A stretch of 64,000 bases of DNA, from the NCBI GenBank assembly GCA_951406725.2, contig OX597818.1, forward strand, positions 124,001 to 188,000, given 5' to 3'. A program made the position numbers and the translations under genes. Positions 10,501 to 62,470 of the stretch are shown in pieces. This DNA comes from Octopus vulgaris. Its lineage: Eukaryota. Positions within the stretch are counted from its first letter, which is position 1. Each line of letters starts with the position of its first letter. The notes beneath the pieces are model-generated. The model saw nothing but the letters and a program-made list of their open reading frames with translations, did not search any database and was not told the origin of the DNA.

Positions 10501-10829
10501 GATTAAATATCATTCCAGTGTCCAACGCAGATCAGCTCATAAAAAAGTAAAAAATATGTAATTTAAAAATATAGATAAAACAAAATTTAAATATAAATAA
10601 TATTTAAAAAAACGTTATATACATATTTACACATATCTGTTGCACAGCCATTGTCTATTCATGAGTTCCTCCACAATATATATATATATATATATATATA
10701 TATATATATATATATATATATATATATATATATATATGATAAAAGGGTAAAATTAATTAATTAAATTAATTAATTAATTAATCAATCAGTTAATTAATAA
10801 TTTTACCAAATAGATTGGTACATTAAAAT

Positions 10830-10910
10830 ACAAATATTCTATAATTATAAACATAATTATAATTAGGGGTCAGCTAATTATAATTATGTTTATAATTATA
10901 GAATATTTGT
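10830..10910. repeat. Perfect 37-bp inverted repeat with 7-nt loop between (TA)n tracts
   Basis: acaaatattctataattataaacataattataattag-gggtcag-ctaattataattatgtttataattatagaatatttgt. Confidence 0.9.
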
Positions 10911-10998
10911 GTGTATATATATATATATTGATTTGTTGATTTGTTGTGGCTCGGAAGAAGAAATCATTGTGAGGGTTGTTTCATATATTTTCAGCCAG

Positions 10999-12600
10999 TT
11001 AACCCTATATTGCATGAATTATTGAGGACAAATACATGAACATTATTTTTACTGAAAGACAATCAAAATCCATAGCTGGAAAGTGAAACATTGCAAATTT
11101 TTATGCAAGTGTAGATATTTGGGTACTTGGGGTTTTGTTAATTTAAAGCAGTAATATTCAAAGAAGGTAAATAAAAACATGTAAATAAATACTTGAATTG
11201 TAATTTATTGAGACATTATCATCATCTGGTCATGTTTATGGCATGGATCGCCATGACTCATTCTCTCCAGACTGTTCAGGTGCTATTGCACATGAGAGGT
11301 CTTCTCAGGTGCACTTGGAGTCTTCGCACATTTGCTTTATTTAGATTCCATTTGGTCTACCAACATTTGTGTACCCATGCTTCAATTTCCATGCTTATCA
11401 CATGAAGGTTACCTAAAAACACAAGAATAACAATAAAAACTGTCTACTTGACATAAGGAAAAACAAAAATTGTTTTTATTCAGTGTGAAAGTGTTTGGAA
11501 CAGTTTGATTTTTGCAGTAAAACAAATGTTAACATCACATTTACGACATGTAATGAACTCACAACCTGGATTCTTGCATCTGCCTTTCTTGCCGCCTTCC
11601 ATGTGCTGGAGCCAGTGATCAATACCATCTATGTGTATTGACCAATTTGGCACTGGAACTGTCAGTCCTTTGGACTTTTTGGCCAGTACTTGCCTTTCCA
11701 CTTTGCTTAGTCATGGGTGTCCTCTTTTGGCTGACTAGGATTTACCTGATCTCACTTTAAAATCTCTAAATTTTAAGTCATATGTAAACAAACATAAGTT
11801 TGTTTTTGAAGCATTGGAATGTATTTTAGAACAAGTAGAAAGATAAATTTTTTCAACATTTAAATACTGAACAGTATATATAAAGGATAAAATTCTTTTA
11901 AGAGCAGAAAAATTTGCTGGCAAAAATTTTTCTGCTCTTAAAAGGATTTTAGCCTTTATATATACTGTTCAGTATTTAAATGTTGAAAAACAAATTATCT
12001 TTCTACTTGTTCTAAATTTTACATTTGTTGCAGTCTCAGGTTCATTAAATTGGAATAAAAGCTGTGACTGTACCACAACCATATGAAGAAAGTGGAAAAT
12101 AAGTTGGTAGTGTCCCTTTTTTGAGTGAACATAGATTCTGTAAAGGTTCAATAACCCTTCCAGCAAATCTACCATGCCCATAAATGTATTGTATATGCTA
12201 ACAATTGAATGGCATGGCATGGTTATGTGAAATTTTTCTTTTCTGTCAAATCTGGAGATTTCAGTGGTTGGATTGACTGCTTCATACGTTGACAACAGTG
12301 GAACAGCACACCATCAAAATTATACGTCCATACTTTGACAGACTTCTTGTCTTTTTGTCTTTAATGTACTGTACCAACCCTACATGAACCTCTGTTCATG
12401 TAGGGTTTTTAAAAGATCAACACCTCTATACGTATTGTCAAAATACAGTTTGTGCCATTTATACTTGGTATATTTTGCAGCAAAATCATCACAATATTTC
12501 CAGAGGCTTTTAAGTCTGGTTGATTTGGGCATGTTCCAATTGCTCCAGTTTCAACTTTGAAATCATGAATAAGTCTATCTATTTCTAACAACATGGTGGT
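10999..12600 (-). mobile_element. piggyBac (PGBD-like) transposon remnant
   Basis: TTAA-CCCT end at ~10999; YNTFMGMVDLL (degenerate YN..MGGVD motif) in ORF 11969-12295; C-terminal cysteine-rich GRCKNPGC...CRKCDVNICF in ORF 11480-11701. Confidence 0.8.
11818..12025. repeat. ~100-bp-arm AT-rich fold-back inside the piggyBac remnant
   Basis: Arms ~11818-11915 and ~11924-12025 are reverse complements with few mismatches. Confidence 0.85.
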
Positions 12601-14269
12601 TTCTTTTTACTATAAAAACTGCTGCAGTTTGTCTGTCAGGTAATAAATGATATGCAAGGCTTTATAAAGTTGCTCAGAAAGACCTGAAATTTTTTAATTC
12701 TCAGCATCTACATTCAATTACATTCACCATGTAACTATGCTAGAATCCACTGTGTTGTTTTAAAGCAACAAAATATAAAAACAACATTTTGCAAGCTTTT
12801 CTATCAAGGTCCATGAGCAATCTTATTTAATACATAGCTTTAAACAGTGTTGTGAAAAGCAAAAGTTCATAACTTAGAACTTTAATGAATTTTTTTACAC
12901 AGTTTGAAGTTTCAATATTCCATCGTCATCATGGATTGATGGCTCGACAAGAGCCAATGGGTCAATGACTGCATTTTGTTCTAATGTTTGCTTTGGTATG
13001 ATCTCTATAGCTTGATGTAAAGAAGTTTCCTAATGTCAGCCTCTTTACATCATGTACTAGGTGCTTTTCCTATGCTACCAGCACTAGTGTGGTCACCATC
13101 ACCCTTGGAAGAGTACAAACCTTGAGGTAGGGGTGGCTTTATGCTAGGAGATAAAGGATTGAAGTATGAGAAAAAGGGAGCAGAACAGATTTCTTGCTGT
13201 AGAACAACCACACGGCTACTTACATTTAGAAGAGATGTTGAAAATGATTGGGTGGAATTGAAAAGAGATAAAATAGAGGTGAAGAGGTATCAGAGTGGTC
13301 CCCTCAAGGTTTATGAGTGAAAATTTTATTGATTGTTAAAACATGTCCTAAATTGCTTTATAAAAATAAGATGATCAAAAGCATCATGTAATATGACATA
13401 GAAGAAATAACGGAAGAGAAAACAATACAAAATTTTTGCTGAGAATTATTCTATGGTGGATCTACTGTCTGAAAATTACACAGTAACTTTTTCCCTTTGT
13501 GCAAACATATACTCAAGATATCAAAAATACATTTTTTGAATTCAAATTGTTCTCATTCTACAGTAATGTTAAAATCTTTTCAGTTAAGCAAAGATGACAA
13601 CTTAGCTACTTTCTACTATTATCATTCTTATAAGTAGGTACTGCCACTAATTAACTTTAATATCTTATTTCTAATGTTGAGTAGCAAATATCCTACTAGC
13701 ACTAATCTAGGAATGCTTGTACAAATAATAGCTCACCTTAAATTCATTTAGTGTTGTATGATTGTCAGCTTTTGGCTGTAAGCCATCAATGAATACTGTC
13801 TCAATTCAGTATACAAAGGAAAGGGCAAAAGAGCTTCCACTAAGCAAGCAGTTCTGACAGTTCTTACAGTTACACCTGCTCTTGATTCTGTTATTACTAT
13901 TATTTAGTTGATGTTTTACATAAATTAAATAAAGTCGCCAATTTTTTTTTTTTTTTGATTTCTTTGTGTTGCTGCAAAAATTTTATCGTCATTATCATCA
14001 TCGTTTAATGTCCTCCTTCCAAACTGATATGATTGAACAGTATGACAGGAGCTGGCAAATCAGAAGACTACACCAAACTCGACTGTCTACTTTGACATGG
14101 TTTCTACAGCTGGATGCCCTTACTAACACCAACTGCTTTACAGTGTGTACTGAGTGCTTTTTACATGACACCAGCAGCAATGAAGTCACCAAGTAAATTG
14201 CAAGACTGAGAAGTAAATGTACAAGGTGATGAGAAGTTAGAGTATGAATAGAGGGACAGAAACAGGTGT

Positions 14270-14690
14270 CTTGCAATTGAGGAGATACCTACACCTTTTC
14301 TACATATCAAGCAGGGCCATTTCCCTGAAGGGACTGATAATTTGTCTGCTTTCCTTCTTACAAATACTTTAGTCTTTGCTAATTTAACTCTAAAGCCCTT
14401 TGATTTAAGGCCTTGTTTCCACAACTGATATTTTTTCTCTAATTCTACTAGTGATTCAGTTATGCAAACAAGGTCATCAGCATAGGGGAGCTTCGATGGA
14501 CAACTAGTTTCAAAATTCCCTTGTTTTGGCCTGGAGGTCTATGTTAAACAAGATATGACTGAGAATTGATCATTGGTGAACTCCTACCTGTACACTAAAT
14601 TCATTGCTATTCTCATTGCTGACTTTTGCCTTACAGACAGCATCCCTGTAAATGACTTCTAGGACATCTCTAAATCTCTGACTATTCAAA
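14270..14690 (-). mobile_element. RTE LINE RT fragment
   Basis: WKQGLKSKGFRVKLAKTKVFV and a YADD-containing segment; homologous to 24750-26330. Confidence 0.8.
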
Positions 14691-61165: not shown

Positions 61166-61466
61166 TATATATATATATATATATATATATATATATAATT
61201 TAGCAATTAAGGACAACTACTTAATAAGGAAAACTTAACAAGAAATTGTCAGGTAGATAGCGTAAAAACCTCATAAGAGAAAAAATTTCGAAAATAATTA
61301 TTTCTTATTGAACATATTAATTTATATATAGAGGGCATTATACATACATGCCAGAAGGCATTATACATACATGCCAAACGCTAAGAGGGACAATTAGTCA
61401 TTTCTACCAAAAATATTACTAATCCCACCGAATGCAATTTTTCAAAGTAAGACATTTAAAAAATAT

Positions 61467-61514
61467 AGACCTGTATCACAGTGATTTCATACTTACGTAC
61501 TCATCAGCAGGCCT
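61467..61514 (-). ncRNA. Type I hammerhead ribozyme (mirror copy)
   Basis: Exact reverse complement of 61664-61711. Confidence 0.85.
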
Positions 61515-61663
61515 GAATGCATTATAAATAAACAACGACCCTGCCCCGCTTAAGTCGATCAGCTAACTGTTCAACATCAACTCACCCATGTGCTTCGTTG
61601 ATGTTGAACAGTTAGCTGATCGACTTAAGCGGGGCAGGGTCGTTGTTTATTTATAATGCATTC

Positions 61664-61711
61664 AGGCCTGCTGATGAGTACGTAAGTATGAAATCACTGT
61701 GATACAGGTCT
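61664..61711 (+). ncRNA. Type I hammerhead ribozyme
   Basis: AGGCCUG-CUGAUGA-GUAC-GUAA-GUAU-GAAA-UCACUGUGA-UA-CAGGUCU: 7-bp stem I, GNRA-capped stem II, quasi-palindromic stem III, AUA cleavage triplet (cut after 61704). Confidence 0.88.
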
Positions 61712-62008
61712 ATATTTTTTAAATGTCTTACTTTGAAAATTGCATTCGGTGGGATTAGTAATATTTTTGGTAGAAATGACTAATTGTCCCTCTTAGCGTT
61801 TGGCATGTATGTATAATGCCTTCTGGCATGTATGTATAATGCCCTCTATATATAAATATATATATATATATATATATATATATATATATATATATATATG
61901 TATGTATGTATGTATGTATGTATATGTATGTATGTATGTATGTATGTATGTATGTATGTATGTATGTATTATGTATGTATGTATGTGTGTGTGTGTATGC
62001 ATATAATT

Positions 62009-62470
62009 TAGAGAAAAACCACTATTAAACAATTCAATAAAGGAAGATGCTATTCACACCATATAGAAAAAATATACTATAAAAAAACCTTATTTTAAAT
62101 CAATAAAGTACAATAAATAGTAAATAGTAGTAAAAAGACTACACATGTTTCATGGCTATATTTTCAAATAGATAATAATAATAAAATCTACTATATAAAT
62201 AGAATTAATTTTAGTTCGATTTAATTTTGAATCGAATTGATTTTATTATTATTATCTATTTGAAAATATAGCCATGAAACGTGTGTAGTCTTTTTACTAA
62301 TTTTTACTATTTATTGTACTTTATTGATTTAAAATAAGGCTTTTTTTTATAGTATATGTTTTCTATATAGTGTGAATAATATCTTCCTTTATTGAATTGT
62401 TTAATAGTGGTTTTTCTCTATATATTGTGAAATTTGATTTAAAATTGTTAAATTGAATTTTTCCCTGTAA
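62009..62470. mobile_element. Microsatellite-adjacent fold-back element with the 3' half of a hammerhead motif
   Basis: ~180-bp arms 62009-62188 and 62239-62420 with several mismatches and a 50-nt spacer; each arm has GCCAU-GAAAC-(A/G)UGU-GUA-GUC. Confidence 0.65.

Follow-up and report, generated by a model that had tools for sequence, protein, structure and literature searches.

What kind of element leaves short inverted fold-backs between (TA)n microsatellites in the genome of Octopus vulgaris, and how are their two arms put together? The question is raised by a stretch of 64 kilobases (kb) from contig OX597818.1 (assembly GCA_951406725.2, positions 124,001 to 188,000 of the forward strand), referred to below as the window; all positions are counted from its first letter. 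A sequence-only reading of the window had pointed to four such fold-backs, which we call E1 to E4 in their order along the DNA. All four are present near the coordinates it had given, and alignment confirms their inverted arms. Judged by their sequence features, two of them, E2 and E3, are very probably 5'-truncated insertions of the tail end of Hydra-type Penelope-like retroelements (PLEs). The best overall explanation is that the fold-backs are stubs of such elements, made by two-ended extension and head-to-head joining; we put its probability at about 0.6.

Two hammerhead-bearing fold-backs

E3 lies between a (TA)16 array (61166-61197) and a (TA)n, then (TATG)n microsatellite (61857-61994) that separates it from E4. 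A tail of 123 nucleotides (nt; 61198-61320, minus strand) leads into the left, tail-bearing arm (61321-61581, minus strand), which contains a tandem duplication of 23 base pairs (bp) and meets the tail-less right copy (61579-61856, plus strand) head to head. The arms are identical at 260 of 260 positions plus one gap, and the copies share 3 nt, at 61579-61581. We assign the centre (61582-61596) to the tail-less copy because 52 public contigs continue upstream of 61579 on the plus strand. The (TA)16 array ends a Tc1-type transposase remnant that abuts it (60368-61165; DDE_3, E 2e-5 at 60825-60932), and the array holding E3 may have grown from the TA target of a Tc1-type transposon.

E2 has the reverse polarity. 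Behind a (TA) array (39809-39847, repeat scan) come the tail-less left arm (39848-39957, minus strand), a centre of 463 nt (39958-40420), the right arm (40421-40530, plus strand) and a tail of 121 nt (40531-40651, plus strand) that ends at (TA)25 (40652-40701). The arms agree at 109 of 110 positions. The right arm opens with the hammerhead core, without the 5' strand of stem I; the tail-less copy alone has this strand, so it extends at least 4 nt further 5'. In each of the two elements the tail-less arm is the one that reaches further 5', so the arms are not nested. The centre of E2 holds a 174-bp direct repeat at 90% identity (40034-40207 and 40245-40418, copies 211 bp apart), which must predate the insertion, since the arms differ at only one of 110 positions. 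A coding origin of this centre is unsupported: there is no convincing Pfam match in 13 frames (best E 0.012), and the Atlas matches, all under 0.8, concern a single frame of 39 amino acids (aa). The tails of E2 and E3 are nearly equal in length and unrelated in sequence.

We ran a descriptor of the type I hammerhead over both strands of the 64 kb, with 60 shuffles as background. The three complete matches (61671, plus strand; 61507 and 39957, minus strand) all fall in E2 and E3 and all face outward, compared with 0.07 loose and 0 strong matches per shuffled window. The E2 motif (39878-39961, minus strand) has a stem I of 4 bp, a stem II of 7 bp closed by a long loop of ~43 nt, and a palindromic stem III. 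In E3 there is one motif per copy, in the left at 61467-61514 (minus strand) and in the right at 61664-61711 (plus strand; stem I 7 bp, stem II 4 bp, near-palindromic stem III), the latter with a predicted cut after 61704. The predicted cut site is 34 and 155 nt from the two ends of E2, and 152 and 275 nt from those of E3; hammerhead cores on opposite strands are 464 nt apart in E2 and 164 nt apart in E3. On its own, stem III folds weakly (-0.2 kcal/mol in E2, 0.0 in E3), whereas dimer pairing reaches -12.1 and -8.4 kcal/mol, respectively. A common variant of the E3 family, at 61678, turns a G.U pair of stem II into A-U, and none of the 18 listed variable places falls in the core, an absence that means little. 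The motifs of E2 and E3 are candidate ribozymes. No hammerhead appears among the Rfam matches listed (150 of 245). Half motifs are less telling in their loose form, with 146 occurrences in the window; a strict form, defined post hoc from a Hydra table, occurs six times (four of these in E2 and E4 together) versus 1.16 in shuffles. The earlier count of outward hammerheads in three elements thus holds in full for E2 and E3, whereas E4 has only a 3' half.

Probable assignment to Hydra-type Penelope-like retroelements

The anatomy of E2 and E3 is that of a known class. PLE insertions begin, at the 5' end, with a 5'-truncated copy in inverted orientation; they can carry a tail of 30-40 bp at one end and have ribozymes in their pseudo-long terminal repeats (pLTRs), as set out in PMC8557442 (Craig et al. 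2021). The same source describes the Hydra clade, with Hydra-1_Obim as its Octopus member, as inserting into (TA)n and carrying type I hammerheads of the kind seen in E2 and E3, and lists Penelope-13_HM with one ribozyme per strand and, at its 5' end, an inverted copy that is 5'-truncated. E2 and E3 resemble the clade in their (TA)n targets, in a type I hammerhead near the 3' end and in a short self-complementary stem III. These hammerheads, the TA flanks and the published architecture support the link to PLEs and their (TA)n preference that the sequence-only reading had drawn.

The absence of an open reading frame (ORF), also reported before, is confirmed: long frames are absent from E1 to E4, as are convincing Pfam matches. 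Since the Hydra-type ribozyme sits behind the ORF near the 3' end (PMC8557442), a missing ORF is expected even in stubs of autonomous copies. As for target-site duplications, none is present at the borders of E1, E2 or E3, in agreement with the earlier statement, with the qualification that a TA duplication inside the (TA)n arrays would be invisible; within microsatellites PLE insertions likewise show no visible duplication.

From the tables of PMC8557442 (files S1 and S2) we computed the distance between cut site and element end for 24 Hydra families. The set excludes Penelope-18, whose motif lies at the 5' end, the antisense row and two families that have no row for the motif. Ten consensus ends lie at 30-48 nt and ten at 97-153 nt, with three between and one at 355 nt. 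The two groups may reflect tail-less and tailed ends. The two distances of E2 fall in or at the edge of these groups; those of E3 are longer.

The E3 family and its junctions

Part of the interval 60200-63800 is present in 20 of 24 listed public runs, under four organism labels. We aligned the contigs of four runs (labels A, A, B and C) to E3 alone, flanks excluded. In these runs 1152, 4277, 1134 and 663 contigs aligned, about one third of them at 99% or better, and family contigs cover the tail in all four. In the two runs with enough joints the median summed depth exceeds the median joint depth by factors of ~14,000 and ~7,000; this ratio is rough, is inflated by overlapping contigs and is not a copy number. 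The family is likely to comprise thousands of copies.

The junction statistics rest on the joints listed (19 of 25). In all 19 an antisense piece is fused to a sense piece, no two joints using the same pair of points, and one joint is common to two runs. Between the pieces there are 1-13 intervening letters in 12 joints. The asymmetry exceeds 5 nt in fifteen, and six have one arm that ends within the tail. In other words, the junctions of the E3 family are formed anew in each copy. Since the junctions are copy-specific and the tail is one-sided, a fixed miniature inverted-repeat transposable element (MITE) does not fit the family, whose arms do not behave as terminal inverted repeats of fixed length.

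More generally, one could regard the fold-backs as MITEs or Foldback DNA transposons, with long terminal inverted repeats, a preference for TA and eroded centres. Their long near-perfect inverted repeats, TA borders and lack of an ORF all suit such elements. The idea is most plausible for E1 and E4, which carry no complete ribozyme, and for a fifth fold-back (11825-12016, see below), which has neither ribozyme nor TA array. Yet E2 and E3 contain complete hammerhead motifs, no duplication is found at the borders of E1 to E3, the ends are unequal, with a tail that stays on one side throughout the family, and E3-family joints include arms that stop inside this tail. We therefore consider a DNA-transposon origin highly improbable.

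Three candidate regularities of the junctions were rejected. Hot spots did not emerge (5 of 19 joints in the best 6-nt window, scan p 0.08; 6 in the best 23-nt window, p 0.85); a preference for positions 8-12 nt upstream of the hammerhead core was seen in none of 38 ends; and 10 junction inserts matched sequence near their junctions no better than they matched random places in E3.

The same contigs bear on whether the fold-backs belong to dedicated short non-autonomous families, consisting of the ribozyme end only and borrowing the enzyme of an autonomous element, as the sequence-only reading had supposed. The abundance of E3 in four of four runs would fit such families, as would the lack of an ORF in E1 to E4. 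So would the non-coding repeats at the centre of E2, which resemble the host DNA reported as captured between pLTRs in PMC3846280 (Arkhipova et al. 2013). Non-autonomous PLE derivatives of this sort are described, namely Chlamys (PMC8557442) and retrozymes (bioRxiv 10.64898/2026.07.22.740005). However, in 52 contigs the E3 family continues for at least 26-30 nt upstream of 61579 and no common 5' end was seen, and the tandem ribozyme units typical of retrozymes were not found. No ribozyme end is directly repeated in E1 to E4 either, a partial tandem (direct pLTR) layout being an optional feature in truncated copies. Plain 5' truncation explains the missing ORF, and we regard dedicated short families as doubtful.

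How the two copies may have been joined

PMC8557442 lists two points as open: the way in which PLEs produce inverted insertions and the reason for their preference for microsatellites. Granted that E2 and E3 are PLEs, we favour double priming as the somewhat likelier origin of their fold-back structure. The GIY-YIG endonuclease of a PLE would cut (TA)n on both strands. Element RNA would serve as template for both cut ends, with synthesis starting at the far end of the tail for one and ~120 nt upstream for the other; both reverse transcriptions would stop early, and the two copies would then be joined head to head over a few shared or added bases. Extension of both ends of a break followed by head-to-head joining had been suggested before, and we too infer it as the best mechanism. 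It is favoured by the non-nested arms, by the asymmetric joints and by two-strand extension in vitro: the purified anole enzyme cuts and extends both target strands (PMC11167929, Frangieh et al. 2024). In that system two internal start sites of the reverse transcriptase (RT) bound the PLE tail, the protein is predicted to be a dimer, and ribozyme cutting is not needed in vitro.

The alternative, likewise of PLE origin, is a single priming event: a first copy, begun at the tail end, would fold back and be recopied up to a TA-like stretch at the other end of the target, and later deletions in the hairpin would leave an uneven centre. Head-to-head is the most frequent PLE arrangement, and self-priming on an antisense template has been proposed for it (PMC3846280). 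Several features of the window agree with such a snap-back: the loop of E1 measures only 7 nt, a single gap is the only difference within the arms of E1 and E3, the short end of E3 lies at an internal TA run and that of E2 at three matching letters. In addition, four of the 19 listed joints are symmetric within 5 nt, which is above the expectation for independent truncation (p ~0.001). Against it, the tail-less arm of E2 and E3 reaches further 5', which would require an extra deletion each time; most listed joints are asymmetric, six of them with an arm end inside the tail; and extension by the anole enzyme starts at two internal sites and involves both target strands (PMC11167929). We consider snap-back unlikely as the general explanation, though a contender to be taken seriously.

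A number of observations weigh against the combination of Hydra-type PLE stubs and double priming. With respect to mechanism, hairpin snap-back gains weight for some copies from the four symmetric joints and from E1 and E3, which are almost symmetric as well. Non-nested arms were established in two elements, E2 and E3, and loss of sequence from one arm following snap-back could account for them; deletions in palindromes can likewise leave variable centres. An enrichment of junctions at the tail, predicted by twin priming on one RNA, is not significant (9 of 19, p 0.09). With respect to class, full-length endonuclease-bearing PLEs encode a telomerase-like RT together with a GIY-YIG endonuclease, and Hydra-clade proteins are marked by RWK, DKT and a CxCX5C linker, with no CCHH. 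No PLE protein was seen in the 121 frames of the window, and the clade of E2 and E3 is deduced from non-coding features because an RT or endonuclease sequence is attached to none of E1 to E4. In folding, the whole hammerhead motifs of E2 and E3 surpass shuffles by a small margin (z -1.5 and -1.6). Their tails, at 121-123 nt, stand against the published 30-40 bp, and the long end of E3 (275 nt) exceeds 23 of the 24 Hydra distances.

One can also imagine a more specialised arrangement. The fold-backs could stem from dedicated non-coding, high-copy PLE parasites with a 120-nt two-site tail, whose stem III would pair two template RNAs while a dimeric RT-endonuclease extended both (TA)n ends. We hold this to be quite improbable. 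Were it true, template pairing by stem III would explain both the head-to-head junctions and the retention of barely cutting ribozymes in PLEs.

The choice between double priming and snap-back could be made without a bench assay. The E3 family is young, likely with thousands of independent junctions and with two alternative ends 120 nt apart, and counting its nested versus non-nested arms could separate the two.

E1, E4 and further inverted pairs

E1 follows a (TA)31 array (10676-10737, repeat scan). Its AT-rich extension of 92 nt, with an AATT run (10738-10829, minus strand), precedes 37-bp arms that are identical at 37 of 37 positions around the short loop (10830-10910); a short TG run and (TA)7 come next. 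The descriptor scan gave no hammerhead motif here. E4 (62006-62423), whose membership is uncertain, has arms that are ~95% alike (173 of 181 aligned positions) and a centre of ~38 nt. A motif resembling the 3' half of a hammerhead occurs at 62275-62287 (plus strand) and 62140-62152 (minus strand), and the 5' core was not found in its arms and centre. The left flank of E4 is a mixed microsatellite. Because there is no TA array on the right, the end of its right extension (62470) cannot be defined. About 10 AT-rich letters are common to the start of the E3 tail (61188-61203) and the outer end of the E4 left arm (62000-62010), likely by chance.

Pairwise comparison of E1 to E4 gave no alignment beyond the length of a chance word, in line with the earlier remark that they share no primary sequence. 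The remaining generalisations apply in part: TA arrays flank E1, E2 and E3 on both sides but not E4, and a one-sided extension of the outer end is found in E1, E2 and E3 (92, 121 and 123 nt), while that of E4 is without a definable end. Accordingly, the "one design" ascribed to all four describes, on the features compared, E2 and E3; E1 and E4 resemble them in shape and lack sequence evidence. E1 and E4 are nonetheless likely to be stubs of other such PLE families, on weaker evidence than E2 and E3.

The fifth fold-back, at 11825-12016, was absent from the earlier list. It consists of arms of ~90 bp (86 of 89 alike) around a short loop; a TA array and a hammerhead motif are both absent, and it departs from the single design proposed for the window. 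It sits within a weak piggyBac-like transposase remnant (Pfam E 0.027). A weak sixth inverted pair, at 23247-23515, has 34-bp arms 200 nt apart and a short TA run at its left end; it is possibly a decayed copy of the same kind, or else chance.

Other features of the window

Diverged repeat pairs in opposite orientation, 69-76% alike, occur at 14084-16794, 18873-20300 and 25905-33821. Two of these pairs include RT remnants, near 14164-14538 and 15127-15360; the pairs look like separate fragments of long interspersed nuclear elements. At 29113-30503 the minus strand has two neighbouring frames, of 281 and 185 aa, that have no match in Pfam and resemble a broken mobile-element gene. GC-rich tandem units of 58-66 bp at 36708-36925, 37765-37962 and 58510-58823 apparently lie in a common short interspersed repeat.

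Comparison with known systems

In twin priming of L1 elements two primers from one cut give rise to an inversion, and the two resulting parts do not overlap. The mechanism that we favour for E2 and E3 would share with it the two primers from one cut and the inversion; the difference is that the parts of E2 and E3 overlap and thereby form an inverted repeat.

Animal non-LTR retrozymes resemble E2 and E3 in being small and non-coding, in their type I hammerhead and in their proposed origin from a PLE end. They are, however, tandem units arranged head to tail (PMC7229834; bioRxiv 10.64898/2026.07.22.740005), whereas E2 and E3 are head-to-head pairs with no tandem ribozyme repeat. Schistosoma mansoni has paired minimal hammerheads on opposite strands, 100-700 bp apart and interpreted as probable truncated PLEs (PMC4209133, Cervera and de la Pena 2014). 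The spacing of 164 and 464 nt in our elements falls in that range. The same paper describes PLE hammerheads with a stem III that is unstable alone, and a dimeric form. Its section on the paired motifs, unlike the present data, has no tails, TA flanks or junction variety.

E2 and E3 differ from the described members of the Hydra clade in having no attached ORF, in the long stem II loop of E2 and in the greater distance of the ends of E3 from the ribozyme. The ribozyme sequences of Hydra-1_Obim, the relative from Octopus, are unlike theirs. A text search of the supplement of Craig et al. 2021 for eight motifs of the window found none, although line breaks can hide matches. Exact-pattern scans returned 0 loci in metagenome contigs and 0 in viral contigs. 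We found no publication on the E2 or E3 family or on a 120-nt PLE tail in a search that left subscription journals largely outside and did not cover Repbase or Dfam. An annotation of Octopus vulgaris counts 31 Penelope-like families with recent insertions (PMC13282606). Labels such as MITE or unknown repeat may be attached to stubs of this kind.

With PLE insertions in general, E2 and E3 have in common the head-to-head junction, the inverted 5'-truncated copy, the one-sided extension and the short overlaps at the junction; they differ in that both copies are short enough to make a hairpin of the entire insertion. This design is in print (PMC8557442, PMC3846280, PMC4209133), and the view of the fold-backs as an undescribed system is not supported. 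The head-to-head pattern is already published for PLEs, and E2 and E3 would represent additional families with that pattern. What sets them apart is a tail that exceeds the published length three- to fourfold, which suggests that in the Hydra clade the tail may be longer than the 30-40 bp rule, together with a large natural set of junctions.

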